Below, in pieces: positions 13,314 to 21,931 of a stretch of 64,000 nt of DNA. Every line of letters starts with the position of its first letter. Position 1 is the stretch's first letter. A program made the position numbers and the translations under genes. Source of the DNA: Candidatus Lustribacter sp. (lineage in GTDB: Bacteria; Vulcanimicrobiota; Vulcanimicrobiia; Vulcanimicrobiales; Vulcanimicrobiaceae); contig OZ255842.1 of assembly GCA_965277805.1 (NCBI GenBank), forward strand, positions 5,280,001 through 5,344,000. Reading direction: 5' to 3'. The notes under the pieces are model-generated. The model was not told where the DNA came from and searched no databases. It worked only from the letters and a program-made list of their open reading frames with translations.

Positions 13314-15073
13314 TGGATTCGCAATCGGCATCGCTTCCGAAGGTCCAGCTGAACCGCTGGCAGACGCTACGACTTACGGTCGTCGGCATCGTCGTCGCGT
13401 TCATGGTGCTCCGGGTGGTGCCGGACGTCTACCGCTTCATCGTGCCGCTGGGCACCTTCAACTACGCGACCGACGATAACGGCGTCGTCATCAAGGTGGC
13501 GCCCACGCGGGAGAAAGGCACCGACCCGCTGCTGGTGGGCGACAAGGTGCGCATCGATCGCATCCGGCCCTTCGACCGCAAGCCGGGCATTGCGCGCATC
13601 GGCTTCACGCAGTACAACTTCGACCGCTGGCTGCCGATCGAGCGCAACGGCGTCGAGCGCGTCGTTCATCTCAAGGCGATCACGGAGACGATGGCGGCCC
13701 GCGCGGTCGTGGGCTTGCGCATCCTTCTCTACGTGACGGCCGTGTGCTCCGCTGCGCTGCTGCTGATCGTCAACCCGCGGCTAGCGACGTTCGCGTTCTT
13801 CGTGTTCTGCTTGGGCGGCGCCGAGCCGACGACGTTTACCGATACGCTGTTCGATCCGCCATGGCGTGAGATCCCCGCTTGGATCGGCGACACGATTTCG
13901 GGGCAAGCTCCGTTCGCGCTGCTGCTCTTCGCGCTGTGCCTGGCCGTTCGCAGTCATCGCGCGCGCTTCGCGATCGCCGCGGTCGTCGGCGTCCTCGCGC
14001 TCGCGTTCGGCACATTACACGCCTACGACTCGTGGCGCGTCACGTACGGCGCGCTGCCGGCCGAGACGTATCGCTTCATTTACGCGCGCGCCGAGACGAT
14101 CACGAACGTGTTCACGGCGCTCGCTTTTGCCGCCGCGTTCATCCGCGCGCGCGGTGCGGAACGGCAGCGCGCCGCCTGGATCATCGCTGCGTTTGCCGTG
14201 GCGGGCGCGGGCCGGATTCTCTCCGAGCGGTTCTTCCCGGCGTACTTGAACTTCTGGGAAAATGGCACGCTGCTCTCGCTCTCGATCATCCCGGTCGTGG
14301 TGGTCTGGATCGCGGTCGTCAAACACCATTTCTTCGACGTCGATTTCATGGTCAGCCGCGCACTCGTCTACACCGCGATCACGGCGGCGGTGCTGTTCAT
14401 CGTCGGCGGCGCGGAAGAACTGCTGACATATCTCTTTTACAACAATACCAACCTCGCTTACGGGTTCACGATCGCCGTGTCGCTGGTGGTCGGTTCCACC
14501 TTCGGCCGCGTTCGCGATTTCCTCGAGGGCTTCGTCGACCGGTTCATCTTCCGCGAGCGGCACGCGCAGCGCAAGTCGCTCGAGCGGGTCGCGGCCCAGT
14601 TGCTCGATGCCGATGACGCCGCCGCGGTCTACAGCGTGCTATTGCACGAAGTCCCGAGCATCCTCGACCTCTCGTTCAGCGGTATCATGATGCGGCTGGC
14701 CGACGGAGGCTATACGCTCGCTCACGAGTGGAATTGGCCGCCCGAATGCGTGAACGAGCTGAGCCCCGACCATCCGCTAACTCGCGACATTTACAAGTCG
14801 CGTGGCGTGCTGCCCGAAGACGCGGTGCGGTCGACGATGGTGAAGGCGCTCTTTCCGAACGACCGCCTGACCTACGCGGCGCCGCTCTACTTCGACCGCA
14901 ACGTGTCGGCGCTCGTCCTCTACGGCCATAGCGTGTCCGGGCTCGACATCGATCCGCAAGAGCGCATCACGCTGATTCGGCTGATGTCCAACGCCTCGAT
15001 CGCGCTGAACGCGATCGAACTGGCGATGTACCGCGACGCGTTCACCGAGGAAGCGGCGCTACACCGTCAGTGA
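13313..15073 (+). CDS. Multi-pass membrane protein with PDZ-like N-terminal loop and C-terminal GAF-like domain
   Basis: Many TM segments; LLVGDKVRI...IERNGVER loop; VDRFIFRER linker then a GAF-like region. Confidence 0.7.
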   Translation: MDSQSASLPKVQLNRWQTLRLTVVGIVVAFMVLRVVPDVYRFIVPLGTFNYATDDNGVVIKVAPTREKGTDPLLVGDKVRIDRIRPFDRKPGIARIGFTQYNFDRWLPIERNGVERVVHLKAITETMAARAVVGLRILLYVTAVCSAALLLIVNPRLATFAFFVFCLGGAEPTTFTDTLFDPPWREIPAWIGDTISGQAPFALLLFALCLAVRSHRARFAIAAVVGVLALAFGTLHAYDSWRVTYGALPAETYRFIYARAETITNVFTALAFAAAFIRARGAERQRAAWIIAAFAVAGAGRILSERFFPAYLNFWENGTLLSLSIIPVVVVWIAVVKHHFFDVDFMVSRALVYTAITAAVLFIVGGAEELLTYLFYNNTNLAYGFTIAVSLVVGSTFGRVRDFLEGFVDRFIFRERHAQRKSLERVAAQLLDADDAAAVYSVLLHEVPSILDLSFSGIMMRLADGGYTLAHEWNWPPECVNELSPDHPLTRDIYKSRGVLPEDAVRSTMVKALFPNDRLTYAAPLYFDRNVSALVLYGHSVSGLDIDPQERITLIRLMSNASIALNAIELAMYRDAFTEEAALHRQ

Positions 15074-15861
15074 CCGACGCCCTGGTAGCGCTGCAGCCCT
15101 AAACGCCAGAACAGGTAGGCAACGATCAGGAAGACGACGCCGATCAGCGGCGTGAGCATCCCGACCGCGAGCGGGAGGCCTAAGCCGTTGTCCGTCTTGT
15201 GCAAGAAGTACGATGCCGGGAAGTAGTTCATGAATCCGAACGGGATCACGAACGCCAGCAGCAGCCGAACGCCTTTGCCGTAGATGCTGAGCGGATAGCG
15301 CGTGAACTCTTGCTCCAGTTGCAACACGATCCAGCGCAGCGCGTCGACCTGCACGAACCAGAACGCGACGGTCGAGATCAGCAGCGCGATGCTCAGGTCG
15401 ATCAGCGCGCCGCCGGTCACAACGAGCGCGATCAGCGCCACGAAACCGGCCGTTACCGCCAGGTGATTGGCCGCGATCGCCACCACGAGGAACGCGATCG
15501 CGAGGACGAGCTCGTCGGGAAAGATCGCGCCGGGGGTAGAGATCACCTGAAAGAGTTCGTCGAGCGGGCGCACCAGCAGCCGGTCGAACTCGCCGTCGCG
15601 AATCCACTGCGGGATCTCGCCGACGGTCGAAAAGAACGTTGCGTTGAGCGCGTGGGCCGTCATCCACAGCCCGTAGAGAAACGCCATGTTGCGAAAGTCC
15701 CAGCCGTTCATCGACGGGAACGTCGTCAGCATCACCCACAACGCCGCAATCGCGGTCGCGTGGTAGACGATCGTGAAGCCGAACCACAGCAGAAAGTTCG
15801 TGCGGTATTCGAGCGTCGTGAGCAAGTTGATGCGCCAGTACTGGCGATAGACTTCTCGCAT
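15067..15861 (-). CDS. ABC-2 family permease
   Basis: IRDGEFDRLLVRPL, YPLSIY, hydrophobic; start MREVYR. Confidence 0.85.
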   Translation of the reverse strand: MREVYRQYWRINLLTTLEYRTNFLLWFGFTIVYHATAIAALWVMLTTFPSMNGWDFRNMAFLYGLWMTAHALNATFFSTVGEIPQWIRDGEFDRLLVRPLDELFQVISTPGAIFPDELVLAIAFLVVAIAANHLAVTAGFVALIALVVTGGALIDLSIALLISTVAFWFVQVDALRWIVLQLEQEFTRYPLSIYGKGVRLLLAFVIPFGFMNYFPASYFLHKTDNGLGLPLAVGMLTPLIGVVFLIVAYLFWRLGLQRYQGVGH

Positions 15862-16658
15862 CAGCCGCCCTGCACGATCACGCGCCGGGCGCCCGCGCGC
15901 CAGATCACGGTCGCGATCAACGCAAGCACGGCGATCCAAAGCACCTGCAGGCTCATGTATTGAACGTACTGTTCGGGCTTGATTTGGCCGATGTAAATCA
16001 GCAGCGGCGTCGAAAACATCGAGGCGAACGGCAGCGCCACGATCGCTTGCTGGATGCCGGCCGGAAAGAACAGCAGCGGCACGATGCCGCCGCCGAGCAG
16101 ATCGGTCACCCAGGTGAGCATCAGCTGTACGGCGCTGATCTCGAGCGTCCAGAACGCGATGCAATTCAGGGTGAAGTTCAGGAAGAAGCCAACGAAGTAC
16201 GCGAGGAAAAAGCTGACGAGGAAGGCACCGAAGACCGCCGCGCTCGGCACGTCGATGTGGACGATCAAGAGCGCGAGCGCGAGCGACGGCACGATCAGCG
16301 CGGCGTGGAAGAGCACTTCGCCCGTGCCGTCGGCGAAGAGGTAGAGCGGAACGCTGATCGGTTTCATGAAGTCGACCACGATGCTGCCGTCGTGCAGCTT
16401 GTCGTGCAAGAGGCTCGTCTGATCGATGTCGAGGATCATGCCCATCAACAGCGCGACGGCCGAATACGTGATGATCGCGTGCAGCGGGACGCCGTGGGGC
16501 GCCGCGTTGCGCGCGTAGAGTGCCACCCACACGACGCGCAGCAGGTAGACGCGCACGGCGAGCGAGCCGATGCTGGTGAAAACTTCGAAGCGATAGGTCG
16601 CTTCGCGCGCGATCGCCTTCAGCATGAATTGGAAGTACGGTTCGAGCGCGAGCAGCAT
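15861..16658 (-). CDS. ABC-2 family permease
   Basis: DGSIVVDFMKPIS, LGGGIVPL, C-terminal VQGG. Confidence 0.85.
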   Translation of the reverse strand: MLLALEPYFQFMLKAIAREATYRFEVFTSIGSLAVRVYLLRVVWVALYARNAAPHGVPLHAIITYSAVALLMGMILDIDQTSLLHDKLHDGSIVVDFMKPISVPLYLFADGTGEVLFHAALIVPSLALALLIVHIDVPSAAVFGAFLVSFFLAYFVGFFLNFTLNCIAFWTLEISAVQLMLTWVTDLLGGGIVPLLFFPAGIQQAIVALPFASMFSTPLLIYIGQIKPEQYVQYMSLQVLWIAVLALIATVIWRAGARRVIVQGG

Positions 16659-17668
16659 CAGGCTTCCGGCACGTGGGCGGGCGGCTTGGCGTAGCCCTCG
16701 AGATAGAGCCGGCGCACGATTTCTTCCATCTCCGGTTCGACGATGGCGACGTCGGTGATCGCGTAGCGTTCGGTTACGCGGCGAATCAGCGCTTCGGCCG
16801 TGGTCGCGCGGCGATCGAAACGAAGCCAGACGATCGGCGCCTCGCGGTGTTCGATTTCGACGCCGGGCAGCGTGAAGCCGGGCTGCGGGTCTTTGAAGTG
16901 AACGACGAGCGTGCGGTGGGTACCGTACTCATCACGCAAACGTTCGAGCTTGCCGTCGTAGATCACCGTGCCCTCATCGATGAGGACGATGCGCTTGCAG
17001 AGGCGCTCGACATCGGCGAGATCGTGGGTCGTGAGGATCACCGTGGTACCGAGCCGTTTGTTGATGTCGGCGATGAATGCACGGATCGCTTCTTTGGCCA
17101 CCACGTCCAGTCCGATCGTCGGCTCGTCGAGGTAGACGATCTTCGGATCGTGCAGCAGAGCCGCGGCGAAGTCGCCGCGCATACGCTCGCCAAGCGAGAG
17201 CTGACGCACCGGCGTTGCCATGAACCGGTCGAGATCGAGGATCTCGACGAAGTGCGCGAGGTTCTCGCGGTAGCGGTCGCGCGGCACGCGGTAGATCGCG
17301 CGCAGCAGTTCGAACGACTCGCGCAGCGGCAGATCCCAATACAGCTGGCTGCGCTGGCCGAATACGACCCCGATGTTGCGGGCGTTCTGGCGGCGCTTCT
17401 CGTGGGGCACGATGCCGGCCACCTCGATCGAGCCGGAGGTCGGGACGAGGATCCCGGTCAGCATTTTGATCGTGGTCGACTTGCCCGCCCCATTGGGACC
17501 GATGTAGCCGACCACCTCGCCTTGCTCGACGGACATGCTCACGTCCTCAACGGCGACTTTTTCCTCGTACTCCCGCGAGAAAAGCGCCCCGATGGCTCCC
17601 CCCAGACCCTCGCCGCGGACAACCGAGCGGAACGTTTTCCGCAGAGCCCGCGTTTCGATGATTGGCAT
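16658..17668 (-). CDS. ABC transporter ATP-binding protein
   Basis: GPNGAGKST, LSLGERMR, LDEPTIGLD. Confidence 0.93.
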   Translation of the reverse strand: MPIIETRALRKTFRSVVRGEGLGGAIGALFSREYEEKVAVEDVSMSVEQGEVVGYIGPNGAGKSTTIKMLTGILVPTSGSIEVAGIVPHEKRRQNARNIGVVFGQRSQLYWDLPLRESFELLRAIYRVPRDRYRENLAHFVEILDLDRFMATPVRQLSLGERMRGDFAAALLHDPKIVYLDEPTIGLDVVAKEAIRAFIADINKRLGTTVILTTHDLADVERLCKRIVLIDEGTVIYDGKLERLRDEYGTHRTLVVHFKDPQPGFTLPGVEIEHREAPIVWLRFDRRATTAEALIRRVTERYAITDVAIVEPEMEEIVRRLYLEGYAKPPAHVPEA

Positions 17669-17845
17669 CAGGGAGCGATTCCCTGAGGCGGCGAAGCCTC
17701 CCGGCACACCGGCTCACCGTTTGTGTCCGGTTCCTTTTCTACGGAAAAGGTCCGGGTTGCGCGGCAGAGAAGCGACGCCGAGGGAACTTTCGTTCTTTGA
17801 GCGGAGGACTTCGCGACATTATTTACCGGAAGGGGGTGAGGTTCC

Positions 17846-17908
17846 ATGGCCGCTAAGAAAAAAGCAATGAAGAAAAAGACGATGAAGAAGACCCCGAAAA
17901 AGAAGTAA
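17846..17908 (+). CDS. 20-aa lysine-rich microprotein MAAKKKAMKKKTMKKTPKKK
   Basis: SD-like GGAAGGGGGTGAGG before ATG, TAA stop, downstream plus-strand terminator; below the ORF-track size cutoff. Confidence 0.65.
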   Translation: MAAKKKAMKKKTMKKTPKKK

Positions 17909-17943
17909 ATACCGATCCGTTTTTTAGCTCTTATTCGAGAACC

Positions 17944-17975
17944 GAGCACGTGGCGTAAGCCGCGTGCTCATTTTT
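17944..17975 (+). terminator. Intrinsic terminator
   Basis: GAGCACGTGGC-GTAA-GCCGCGTGCTC followed by ATTTTT; the G-U pair and T-run favour the plus strand. Confidence 0.7.
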
Positions 17976-19135
17976 CATTTGCCGCGGCCGACCATCGAGC
18001 GGGCGATCACGATGCGCTGGATCTGCTGAGTTCCCTCGTAAATTTGCGTAATTTTGGCGTCGCGCATCATTCGCTCCACGGGGTATTCGGTTGAATAGCC
18101 AAACCCGCCGAGTAACTGCACGGCATCCGTCGTAACGCTCATCGCTACATCGCCGCATTTGAGCTTTGCGATCGCCGACCACGTCGTGAGATCGTCGTCG
18201 CCGGCGTCGCACTTGCGCGCCGCTTCGTAGAGCAAGAGCCGGGCCGCCTCGACCTCGGTCTTCATGTCGGCCAGCATGAATTGCAGGCCCTGTTGCTGTG
18301 AGAGCGGCTTGCCGAAGGCGACCCGTCCCTTGAGGTACTCGGTCGCGTATTCGAGCGCGCCGGTGGCGATGCCGAGCGCTTGCGCCGCGATGCCGGGGCG
18401 CGATTTGTCGAGCACTTTCATGGCGATCTTGAAGCCGCCCCCTTCGGGGCCGAGCATGTTCGCGGCCGGCACGCGGCACTCGGTGAAGACGAGTTCGACC
18501 GTCGGCGAACCCCGGATGCCCATCTTTTTCTCGAGCTTCCCGACCGCGAAGCCCGGCGTGCCCCTCTCGACGACGAACGCGCTGATGCCGTTCGCGCCTT
18601 TCTCGGGATCGGTGACGGCGAAGACGGTCACGATGTCGGCGATGCTGCCCTGGGTGATCCAGATCTTCGTTCCGTCGAGCACGTAGTCGTCGCCGTCGCG
18701 GCCCGCACGCATGCGCATCGAGCCGGCCGCGTCGGAGCCTGAGCCCGCCTCGGTGAGCGCATACGCCGCCACCCATTCACCGCTCGCGAGTTTGGGCACG
18801 AAGCGCTGCTTTTGTTCTTCGCTGCCGCCGATGAGGATCGGCAGCGCGCCCAGCTCTTGCACGGCGATGATTAGGGCGCTCGACGCGCACGCCTTCGCCA
18901 CTTCTTCGACGACCTTAACGTAGGTCGCGAACGTGCCGCCGAGGCCGCCGTATTCCACCGGAAACGGAATCCCGAAGAGGTCGTTCTGCGCGAACAGCTT
19001 CTGGATGTCCCACGGGAACTCGCCGGTCGCATCGATCTCGGCCGCACGCGGTGCAACCTTCTCGCGCACGAGCTCGCGCACGGCATCGAGGATTAGCGCC
19101 TCCTCGTCGTCGTTCGGACCGCTGGTTAGTGCCAT
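17975..19135 (-). CDS. Acyl-CoA dehydrogenase
   Basis: ALTEAGSGSDA, KMGIRGSPT, RDAKITQIYEGTQQIQR. Confidence 0.94.
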   Translation of the reverse strand: MALTSGPNDDEEALILDAVRELVREKVAPRAAEIDATGEFPWDIQKLFAQNDLFGIPFPVEYGGLGGTFATYVKVVEEVAKACASSALIIAVQELGALPILIGGSEEQKQRFVPKLASGEWVAAYALTEAGSGSDAAGSMRMRAGRDGDDYVLDGTKIWITQGSIADIVTVFAVTDPEKGANGISAFVVERGTPGFAVGKLEKKMGIRGSPTVELVFTECRVPAANMLGPEGGGFKIAMKVLDKSRPGIAAQALGIATGALEYATEYLKGRVAFGKPLSQQQGLQFMLADMKTEVEAARLLLYEAARKCDAGDDDLTTWSAIAKLKCGDVAMSVTTDAVQLLGGFGYSTEYPVERMMRDAKITQIYEGTQQIQRIVIARSMVGRGK

Positions 19136-19288
19136 GCCCGCGTCGATTCGACCGTCAGCTTGCGCCGGCATGCCGTAAGGAGGGCAAGCATGCCAGCGTT
19201 AGTGTATAAACAAATCGAGCTTGAGAACCGAAGGGCTCTTAAAGCATGCACGGGGGGTGAGGGTGCTCCCTGCGGATAGGGTTCCAAC

Positions 19289-21931
19289 GTGACAGCTTTC
19301 GTCGGGTGGCGATCTGTTTTTGCTACGCTCGCGGCTCTGACCGTCGTTACGGGGCTCGGGTTAGCTTTCGCGCGGGGGCATAACGAAACGGTCAACGCGT
19401 TCGTGCCCGCGACCCTGTTTTTGGCGGCGCTGTTCGATTTCGCGACGTTTGCGATTTTAACGGCGTCGGAGCGCGTCGACGACGATCGGCCCAACCTGAT
19501 CCTCGCCGCCGCATTCATGGCAGCGGGCACATTTGCGCTCGTGAGTCTCGCGGTCGTCCCACCGCTTCCGGGCGTCCCGGCGCTGGTACCGGCGCCGGCG
19601 GGCTTTTCGCTGTGGATCTACTGGCTCGGCCACACCTACGTCGGCATCGCCGCACTCGTTTACGCCCAACTCCGTTCCATCGGACCCCGCCACCGCGACG
19701 CGCGCTTTACCAGTGCCGTAGCTGCGGGCGCCTTGGCTCTGTTCGCGGCCGCTGTGGCCGCGGCACTCACCGGCAGCGCGCTCGCACCCCTCGGAGCGTT
19801 GTTCGCCGCTCTCCTAGCAGGGGCGGTCTGCGCCGCGGGATGCGTCCGCCTGGCCTTGCTGCCGGAAAAGAACGCCGTCGAACGCGCGGTCGCAACGATG
19901 CTGTTGGCCATGACGCTCGACGTTGGAGTCGCGTGGGTGGCCGGCCATCGATTCACGTTTGGCTGGAGCGCGTCGCGGGTGTTGCTGCTTTTGGGCTCGG
20001 CCCTCGTCTTCTCTGCCGTGCTGCGGCGGCTCCTCGCCGAGCACGCACGCCTGCGGGACGTCGAGCAGGCGTTCGCGTCTGCGAGCCGCCGCGCAGCGCG
20101 TATTCGCGCGCTGTGGCATGTGTCGTCGAGCGACGCGCTCAACGATGCCGAGCACCTGCAGGCCGTCCTCGATGCCGGCCGCACTGCACTGCGCGTCGAT
20201 CACCCGATTTTCGGCATGATCTACCAAATCGAAGGTGACGAGGTCGTCGTGAACGCGATCTCCTGGTCGGGAGATGCCGAAGCGCATGCGGCGGCGCTGG
20301 CGGTCTTCGCTCCTTCCGTGCGCTTCCCGATCGGTCAAACGGCAGCGACGGAGCTCGTTTCGAGCGGCCGCACGCGTCACTGGAACGACATCGATCCACA
20401 CGATCCGCCATCCGGGTTGATCGGATTCGCGCAATGGACGAACGTTGTCGCCGCCACGTTCCAGATTGGGCGCGTAACGTATATTCTCGCGTTTGGAACG
20501 AGCGTTCCACTCGCGTCCGAGCCGTTCGCTGAAGACGATCTCGCCTTCGTCGACGTACTCGCATCGCAACTCTCGCATCGTTTCTATGAACGCGAGCAGC
20601 TGGCGCGGATTCGCTACCAAATGGAGCACGACGCGCTTACGGGCCTGTGTAATCGGACCGAGTTCCGTAAAGCAGTACGCGAACGGGTAAGCGCCGGGAG
20701 CCCGTTTGCCGTAGTTATGCTCGACTTAGACGGCTTTCGCTTTATCAACGAGACTGCCGGCCATCTCATTGGTGACGAGATTTTGGTTGAAGTCGCGGCA
20801 ACGCTCTCCGGCTTGCGCGAAGGCGACGTCGTGGCGCGTTTGGCCGGCGACGATTTCGGCATCGTCATGAATGACATCGGGAAGAACGGCACGCTCGCCG
20901 CCGGACTGCAGCGCTACGCAGCGGTGTTCGACCGTCCGTTTCATACCGGCGATCGCGAAGGGAAACGCTTCCTGCCGGTTGCGGCCTCGATCGGAGCAGC
21001 GGTCTTTCCCAACGACGGGAAGACGGTAGACGACTTGGTGCGATGCGCCGACGTTGCGCTCGATGCCGCAAAGCAGCGCGGCGGGGGAACGACGGTTCTC
21101 TATGCCGATTCGATGGCGGCGACGAGCAACGACCTCTACCGGTTCCGGGGCGAACTGGTGGAGGCGTTTCAAACCGACGCCTTCATTTTGGAATACCAAC
21201 CGACGTTCGATCTGAGCACTGGCCGTACGGTGGGAGCAGAAGCACTAGTACGCTGGGATCATCCGCGGCGGGGCCGGCTACAACCGGCGGAGTTCGTCGA
21301 GTTCGCGGAGCGGTCGGGGCTCGGCGGCCGTCTCGCACGATGGGTGCTGAGACGGGTGTGCGATGACCTGGGACCACTCGAACTGCCGCCGGGATTCCGG
21401 TGCTATTTTAACCTCCCGGCGCATCTCTTGGACGATCCGGCGTTTTTAACCGAGTTGGAAACCCAGCTCGAGGGCGTTCCGAGCCTGGCGCGGCATCTCG
21501 GGGTCGAGATCACCGAGAGCGAAGCGATGCAAAACGCGGAGCGAACCGTTCAGGCACTGCGGAACATCCAGGAAATCGGCCTACGAGTCGCGATCGACGA
21601 TTTCGGTACGGGCTACTCGTCGATGGCGTATCTCAAGCGTTTTCCGATCGACGTCGTCAAGATCGACCGCTCGTTCATATCCGGTTTACCGGACGACGAG
21701 AAGGACGCCGCTCTCGACGAGATGTTTCTTCAGCTGACTCGGCAATTCGGATTCGTGAGTCTGGCTGAAGGCATCGAAACCGAGAACCAAGCGGCTTGGC
21801 TGCGCGGTCACGGATGCATGCTCGGGCAAGGCTTCCTCATGTCTCGGCCGCTGCCGGTCGAGGCCTTTGTAAACCACATGCAAGCCGAGAAAATGCTCGA
21901 TTCGCTTTCGATCGAGTCGGCAACGTTATAG
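19289..21931 (+). CDS. MASE4-like membrane sensor + GAF + GGDEF + EAL protein
   Basis: N-terminal TM block; HDALTGLCNR, RLAGDDF; AEALVRW, DDFGTGYSS, AEGIET. Confidence 0.88.
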   Translation: MTAFVGWRSVFATLAALTVVTGLGLAFARGHNETVNAFVPATLFLAALFDFATFAILTASERVDDDRPNLILAAAFMAAGTFALVSLAVVPPLPGVPALVPAPAGFSLWIYWLGHTYVGIAALVYAQLRSIGPRHRDARFTSAVAAGALALFAAAVAAALTGSALAPLGALFAALLAGAVCAAGCVRLALLPEKNAVERAVATMLLAMTLDVGVAWVAGHRFTFGWSASRVLLLLGSALVFSAVLRRLLAEHARLRDVEQAFASASRRAARIRALWHVSSSDALNDAEHLQAVLDAGRTALRVDHPIFGMIYQIEGDEVVVNAISWSGDAEAHAAALAVFAPSVRFPIGQTAATELVSSGRTRHWNDIDPHDPPSGLIGFAQWTNVVAATFQIGRVTYILAFGTSVPLASEPFAEDDLAFVDVLASQLSHRFYEREQLARIRYQMEHDALTGLCNRTEFRKAVRERVSAGSPFAVVMLDLDGFRFINETAGHLIGDEILVEVAATLSGLREGDVVARLAGDDFGIVMNDIGKNGTLAAGLQRYAAVFDRPFHTGDREGKRFLPVAASIGAAVFPNDGKTVDDLVRCADVALDAAKQRGGGTTVLYADSMAATSNDLYRFRGELVEAFQTDAFILEYQPTFDLSTGRTVGAEALVRWDHPRRGRLQPAEFVEFAERSGLGGRLARWVLRRVCDDLGPLELPPGFRCYFNLPAHLLDDPAFLTELETQLEGVPSLARHLGVEITESEAMQNAERTVQALRNIQEIGLRVAIDDFGTGYSSMAYLKRFPIDVVKIDRSFISGLPDDEKDAALDEMFLQLTRQFGFVSLAEGIETENQAAWLRGHGCMLGQGFLMSRPLPVEAFVNHMQAEKMLDSLSIESATL

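Follow-up and report, generated by a model that had tools for sequence, protein, structure and literature searches.

A conserved, very probably stand-alone micro-gene for a lysine-rich peptide in a group of uncultured bacteria from soil and peat

The window analysed here, a stretch of 64,000 nucleotides from the genome of a Candidatus Lustribacter species, contains a very short lysine-rich reading frame between two genes of the opposite strand, which raises the question of whether so small a frame is a gene and, if so, what its product would do. The micro-ORF (17846..17908, + strand) consists of an ATG and 20 codons in all followed by TAA, and translates to MAAKKKAMKKKTMKKTPKKK*, with lysine encoded by 11 of the 20 codons. 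It is located in a local A-rich dip, in which G+C content falls to 0.40-0.48 (17800-17949) compared with 0.58-0.73 on either side (100-nt windows). Sequence, translation and G+C profile thereby confirm the A-rich island with a 20-residue, 11-lysine frame described in an earlier, sequence-only reading of this locus. Among all ORFs of 8-40 codons in the whole 5.53-Mb genome (64.3% G+C), no other exceeds 40% lysine, which places the micro-ORF far beyond chance; the top three entries of the genome-wide lysine ranking are nested starts of this same frame, and the runner-up reaches 38%. The micro-ORF is single-copy and unique in its own genome. Both flanking genes are on the minus strand and encode an ABC ATPase and, on the downstream side, a convergent acyl-CoA dehydrogenase (17975-19171, - strand), beyond which lies a gene (19289-21931, + strand) whose product is a membrane protein of 880 residues carrying GGDEF and EAL domains (cyclic-di-GMP turnover). 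Elsewhere in the genome, outside the window, a longer ORF (approximately 1679030-1679146, - strand) ends in a Lys/Thr/Pro/Ala-rich tail resembling the KKTPKKK motif of the micro-peptide and perhaps encodes a nucleoid protein with an H1-like tail.

An extended Shine-Dalgarno sequence, a purine run 6 nt upstream of the ATG (17829..17839, + strand), pairs over 11 bp, including one G-U pair, with the 3' end of the genome's own 16S rRNA. The calculated duplex energy of -17.3 kcal/mol was matched by none of 3000 random genomic 20-mers, which bears out the strong SD-like site noted earlier, and the site is kept in all seven genus sequences and likewise in other genera. Downstream, an intrinsic terminator (17944..17979, + strand) comprises a stem-loop (17944-17969) with an 11-pair stem (8 G-C pairs) and a 4-nt loop, followed by a T-rich tail (17970-17979; ATTTTTCATT) that overlaps the end of the convergent acyl-CoA dehydrogenase gene at its stop codon. 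It thus contains the G+C-rich hairpin and U-run typical of Rho-independent terminators, and the same build is present 3' of the ORF in other genera. The terminator scan alone is weak evidence, as its two terminator-like sites compare with an average of 1.3 in shuffled sequences. In one relative, compensatory GC-to-AU changes affect two of the stem pairs, and on the minus strand the hairpin lacks a subsequent T-run; the proposal of a plus-strand terminator between minus-strand neighbours is upheld by the hairpin, its T-rich tail and these compensatory changes.

The earlier reading had made its case for a gene dependent in part on conservation of the frame in relatives. A 320-nt region including the micro-gene is present in six of the seven other congeneric genomes, and ATG, Shine-Dalgarno sequence, frame and stop are kept in all seven aligned genus sequences. 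The seventh congener, a complete 3.9-Mb genome, lacks the micro-gene, which is therefore dispensable. Within the genus, 14 of the 63 ORF columns are variable (4, 2 and 8 at codon positions 1, 2 and 3, respectively), and the codon differences comprise 11 synonymous versus 7 non-synonymous changes, so that the pattern of synonymous change, which had been suggested as a check, also favours a coding frame. Most differences are exchanges between AAA and AAG or between ACG and ACC, the stop codon is TAA in some sequences and TAG in others without moving, and a 3-nt insertion in one congener (G001) preserves the frame. Variability of the ORF resembles that of the neighbouring ABC coding DNA (14/63 vs 15/69 variable columns); the flanking UTRs vary in 19 of 29 columns (remainder of the 5'UTR) and in all of the first 15 nt past the stop. 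Judged from these alignments, the reading frame is under purifying selection.

The search for this short ORF in related genomes, likewise suggested earlier, was extended to 151 sampled genomes of the class (Eremiobacterota/Vulcanimicrobiota). A MAAKKK pattern matched 37 places in 28 of these genomes, compared with 4 places for the reversed control. Twenty-seven of the 37 places, distributed over 22 genomes, are Lys-rich ORFs of 16-26 codons, all of which have a GGGGGTGA- or GGAGGTGA-type Shine-Dalgarno sequence upstream and a hairpin with a T-run downstream; the other ten are either the starts of longer, unrelated ORFs or very short frames. A looser pattern matched 24 of the 151 genomes (4 control matches) and added nine ORFs starting with MAKKK, MPAKKK or MAMKKK as well as six genomes; it also yielded one 51-codon variant and one unrelated ORF, and the looser-pattern counts leave out two further matches. 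In total, at least one copy of the micro-gene was identified in 28 of the 151 genomes, some of which encode two paralogue types or tandem copies. With these patterns it was not found in one genus sampled by 44 species, which is not equivalent to absence. A profile built from 23 peptides (A4) was rejected as a counting tool, since it recovered only 11 of the 151 genomes and was less sensitive than the DNA patterns. By sequence comparison, the micro-gene is conserved among a group of uncultured bacteria from soil and peat. Family sequences drift freely and retain charge alone. One locus (L197, genome G017) contains three tandem micro-ORFs on the minus strand beside the ABC operon (starts 1309, 987 and 625), one copy being His/Lys-alternating and another Arg-rich, a pattern read as duplication with residue change in which charge rather than A-richness is retained. 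The 51-codon relative (L179, genome G033; + strand from 216) shares its Shine-Dalgarno context and its first and last residues with its 16-codon neighbours and contains inserted Arg-rich and hydrophobic Val/Ala stretches.

Similar frames occur far beyond the class. An all-prokaryote scan of one genome per species, using the Shine-Dalgarno core together with the MAAKKK pattern, returned at least 120 stretches, of which 80 loci were listed; among the matches listed, 69 of 88 starts belong to ORFs no longer than 35 codons in which lysine makes up at least 40%. The bacterial titles listed include Nitrospirota (often as tandem pairs), Methylomirabilota, Verrucomicrobiota, Elusimicrobia, Margulisiibacteriota, Saccharimonadales, Phycisphaerae, Myxococcota, Fibrobacterota and Bifidobacterium MAGs, and several DPANN archaea are also represented. 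This sample is biased, because the pattern fixes the first six residues, and for peptides of such low complexity homology and convergence of the multi-phylum look-alikes are indistinguishable at the level of sequence. Four loci titled Nitrospirota (L074, L075, L099 and L124) contain two differing Lys-rich micro-ORFs in tandem, approximately 200-240 nt apart, and a strongly conserved region upstream of the first ORF is common to many Nitrospirota records. None of ten family peptides (20-26 residues) was found in a collection of 15 billion proteins, from which it follows that these genes are not called. To our knowledge, the length limit of every gene caller exceeds 16-26 codons, and the family is missing from protein databases because genes of this size fall under such limits. 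No published description of the N-terminal word, of lysine-rich small ORFs or of polylysine microproteins was found in our literature search, which did not extend to subscription journals and supplements.

In addition to its translation and termination signals, the micro-gene is preceded by a promoter-like motif of the type associated with ECF sigma factors (extracytoplasmic function; 17769..17794, + strand), consisting of GAAGC (17769-17773), a 17-nt spacer and CGTT (17791-17794). In 23 of 24 copies from Baltobacteraceae, a motif of the form G(G/A)A(A/G)C-N17/18-CGTT ends 38-70 nt upstream of the ATG. The promoter criteria applied were a -35 GGAAC element with its AAC core, a spacer of 16-18 nt, a -10 CGTT element and a start 6-8 nt after the -10 element. 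In the window, the 17-nt spacer and CGTT agree with this consensus and the -35 element, GAAGC, does not preserve the AAC core; in relatives the element reads GAAAC (as in four congeners) or GGAAC. In C. glutamicum, sigH/sigE promoters follow GGAAC-N17-18-cGTT and envelope stress is a typical trigger of ECF sigma factors (PMC10012870), and alphaproteobacterial EcfG promoters follow GGAAC-N16-CGTT with a nearly invariant AAC triplet (PMC7083833). The micro-gene motif is like these promoters in its -35/-10 core and spacing in the same 23 of 24 copies, and differs in its occurrence in another phylum and in the GAAGC element of the window, the corresponding sigma factor being a candidate of the ECF class. 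A related search expression, which also allowed variant -35 and -10 letters, was applied to the all-prokaryote matches; among the matches listed, 10 of the 69 copies contained it, of which nine have titles of this phylum and the tenth is an 'uncultured bacterium', and it was missing from all 58 copies of other phyla and from one Elarobacter copy. A sigma-70 promoter scan returned no sites. No clear copy of the motif was identified before the 16 sigma-70-family genes of the genome itself. A genome-wide search for GGAAC-N16-18-CGTT gave 209 matches versus 100 for the reversed control, and an ECF regulon in this genome was dropped as too noisy, the regulon being undefinable because the motif count is only twice that of the control. 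An ECF-type sigma factor is the likely candidate for driving the micro-gene, with a predicted transcript start near 17800-17803. Given that its frame, Shine-Dalgarno sequence, stop and terminator are conserved, that it has its own promoter-like motif and that none of ten peptides is in the protein collection, the micro-ORF is very probably a real, stand-alone gene that gene callers have overlooked, as had been proposed.

The micro-gene is also present in RNA libraries. Six metatranscriptome runs contain 0.17 of the sampled words, and mapping included three metatranscriptome runs from three studies and one run of unknown kind. Contigs of 174-202 nt from relatives, approximately 90-93% alike, span 17719-17940; four were placed, namely at 17751-17940 (191 nt), 17719-17892 (174 nt), 17744-17907 (part of a 202-nt contig) and 17773-17909 (part of a 176-nt contig). 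No RNA contigs from the three studies covered 17524-17709 or 17958-17988, although uncovered stretches are only a weak hint. This coverage fits a short separate transcript, from contigs that carry no information on strand, ends or level and for which DNA carry-over is possible. Relative to the start that the ECF-like motif predicts, all four contigs reach 30-80 nt further upstream, which implies either another start or a motif located inside the transcript. X5 was rejected as evidence of expression, as its depth is 2 throughout and it behaves like DNA of the window organism itself. Within the spacer that the micro-gene shares with the ABC operon there is also an inverted repeat (hairpin; 17726-17755). 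One congener (G007) has a deletion of this stretch, others show variation in it, and the RNA contigs begin around it.

On balance, we hold it somewhat probable that the micro-gene encodes a stress-induced, translated and soluble polycation that binds cellular polyanions. An ECF-type alternative sigma factor would most likely start a short mRNA approximately 45 nt before the ATG, the unusually long Shine-Dalgarno sequence would load ribosomes onto this mRNA, and the hairpin and U-run would terminate it. The predicted product is a peptide of 20 residues with 11 lysines and a charge of about +11, probably starting with AAKKK after removal of the methionine. Lacking a hydrophobic core, such a peptide cannot fold and would therefore most likely act via its charge, potentially binding and neutralising polyanions under stress, with DNA, rRNA/ribosomes, mRNA and polyphosphate as candidate targets, none of them favoured. 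Translation of the micro-ORF, like its binding target, is inferred.

The likeliest alternative starts from the neighbouring operon and proposes that the peptide is exported by, or tied to, a divergent ABC-2 exporter and serves as a secreted or surface-bound polycation. This three-gene operon (15067..17668, - strand; Pfam assignments) encodes an ABC ATPase with ABC_tran and DrrA1-3_C domains (16658-17668) and two ABC2_membrane_6 permeases (15861-16658 and 15067-15864), all on the minus strand. Sampled at one genome per genus, the family has ATPase homologues in 56 of 61 genomes, and these fall into two identity grades. Thirty fetched ATPase loci, one genome per genus, were scanned for any tiny Lys-rich ORF with an unconstrained N-terminus; the micro-gene divergently adjoins the ATPase in ten of them, in each case the higher-identity copy (72-100%), and adjoins none of the lower-identity copies among these 30 loci. 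These counts include unpublished genomes, namely G177 (L202) among the ten positives and G172, G168 and G181 among the twenty negatives, and an eleventh genus (G108) shows the pairing by coordinates. The other flank differs by genus, with the acyl-CoA dehydrogenase gene in the window and SRPBCC genes elsewhere. The congener without the micro-gene carries only a 67% ATPase copy and thus also lacks the higher-identity paralogue. A second ABC paralogue in the window organism's own genome (approximately 2974223-2975224) belongs to a type that the micro-gene never adjoins (loci compared, L189-L204). This association with one paralogue, the joint absence of both from the complete congener and the envelope stress typical for ECF sigma factors (PMC10012870) argue for a link to export. 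Against it, the peptide has no signal peptide, leader or hydrophobic stretch, an ECF-like motif does not recur consistently in the part of the shared spacer that faces the ABC operon, the copies of G020, G040 and G100 are located away from the ABC operon and other phyla show no such link. Moreover, the gene order may be merely inherited, as the genera are kin and not independent. We therefore treat the pairing as conserved gene order and a putative functional tie with the ABC-2 exporter as a lead, and consider export rather unlikely.

A second alternative is a dedicated ribosome-bound microprotein. Polybasic ribosomal microproteins such as bTHX, bS22, bL37 and eL41 are similarly small (approximately 20-35 residues), very basic and often encoded by single genes with strong translation signals. 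By analogy, a small, highly charged peptide from a stand-alone gene with a very strong Shine-Dalgarno sequence would suit such a role, and the RNA-library contigs suggest expression in situ. The known proteins, however, combine Arg and Lys with fixed motifs, whereas the micro-peptide is Lys-only and has no sequence match to them. Searches of Pfam and NCBIfam with the window peptide and a 21-aa form (L007) gave no match at E values up to 10 and covered the Hc1/Hc2, bTHX, bS22, bL37 and eL41 models contained in those libraries, and neither the peptide nor the 23-row profile (A4) matched a PDB chain at E values up to 10. The promoter motif is of a stress type and not a housekeeping one, the distribution is patchy (28 of 151 genomes, none found in the genus of 44 species), unlike that of the ribosomal microproteins, and the sequence drifts freely while charge alone is kept. 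A ribosomal role of this kind is thus quite improbable. The same searches bear on the likeness to histone H1 proposed in the sequence-only reading, which holds for composition only. Chlamydial Hc1 and Hc2/HctB, AlgP and the C-terminal tail of HupB are H1-like Lys/Ala-rich bacterial proteins that share with the micro-peptide an extreme lysine content with Ala/Pro/Thr spacers and presumably disorder, and polyanion binding by charge would, by analogy, be expected in both. In contrast to the stand-alone, unannotated micro-peptide of 16-26 residues, these proteins are five to ten times longer and built of repeats.

It could also be argued that the RNA itself is the product, an A/G-rich small RNA that binds Hfq-like proteins or the 30S anti-Shine-Dalgarno sequence, with the reading frame incidental. 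The Shine-Dalgarno match is unusually long, synonymous AAA codons are conserved, and a box with TTATTC (17927..17940, + strand), located past the stop codon and ahead of the terminator, is nearly invariant in the genus, so that some constraint at the RNA level is indicated by the codons and the box. TTATTC is present in 8 of 18 3'-UTR windows (one per genus or paralogue), with the top 6-mer reaching at most 5 in 300 shuffles, and was seen at the same position in L003-L007, L031, L033, L034, L040, L182 and L193. The coding features do not fit this view: indels are exclusively in-frame, the stop position is kept, third positions vary in the two Ala codons and the Lys codons across genera, and paralogous copies are His- or Arg-rich. 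Furthermore, the fold of the whole transcript is no better than that of shuffles (z = -1.25; 24 of 200 equally stable), and the best Rfam 15 matches reach 12.6-20.7 bits where the gathering thresholds are 37-114 bits, with none on the ORF strand over the ORF. A closed-loop mRNA joining the end of the ORF with the 3'-UTR box, as proposed by RNAalifold, was rejected, every proposed pair being invariant, as was UTR pairing over 27 copies, which is no better than shuffles (mean z of -0.18 for ORF/3'UTR and +0.06 for 5'UTR/3'UTR). An RNA-only function is very improbable. That the micro-ORF is a regulatory leader or sensor ORF for a neighbouring gene, in which runs of Lys codons might sense Lys-tRNA or stall ribosomes, is exceedingly improbable: the ORF runs directly into a terminator, genera differ in the gene located downstream, no RNA fold exceeds shuffles, and the micro-ORF can neither act as a leader peptide for the next gene, because that gene is convergent, nor attenuate the ABC operon, because the operon is divergent.

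The Eremiobacterota micro-gene family, its ECF-type motif and its ABC-2 pairing are new here; the sequence-only reading had noted neither the motif nor the pairing, nor the spread through the class and into many phyla. The family recurs across the whole class and has look-alikes in many phyla, yet is absent from protein databases. A broader interpretation, which we think unlikely, is that many phyla and some DPANN archaea make ribosomal oligolysines ('protein polyamines'), of which the Baltobacteraceae form would be ECF-induced, ABC-2-coupled and maybe exported. Epsilon-poly-lysine is a non-ribosomal, antimicrobial polymer; if this interpretation were true, the ABC-2 coupling would make possible export as its ribosomal counterpart. 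The ECF-type motif and the conserved pairing with one ABC-2 paralogue provide two concrete, testable handles. If the peptides are made, cells would own a genetically encoded and regulated polycation beside polyamines and nucleoid proteins, which would bear on the protection or compaction of nucleic acids under stress in uncultured soil and peat bacteria.
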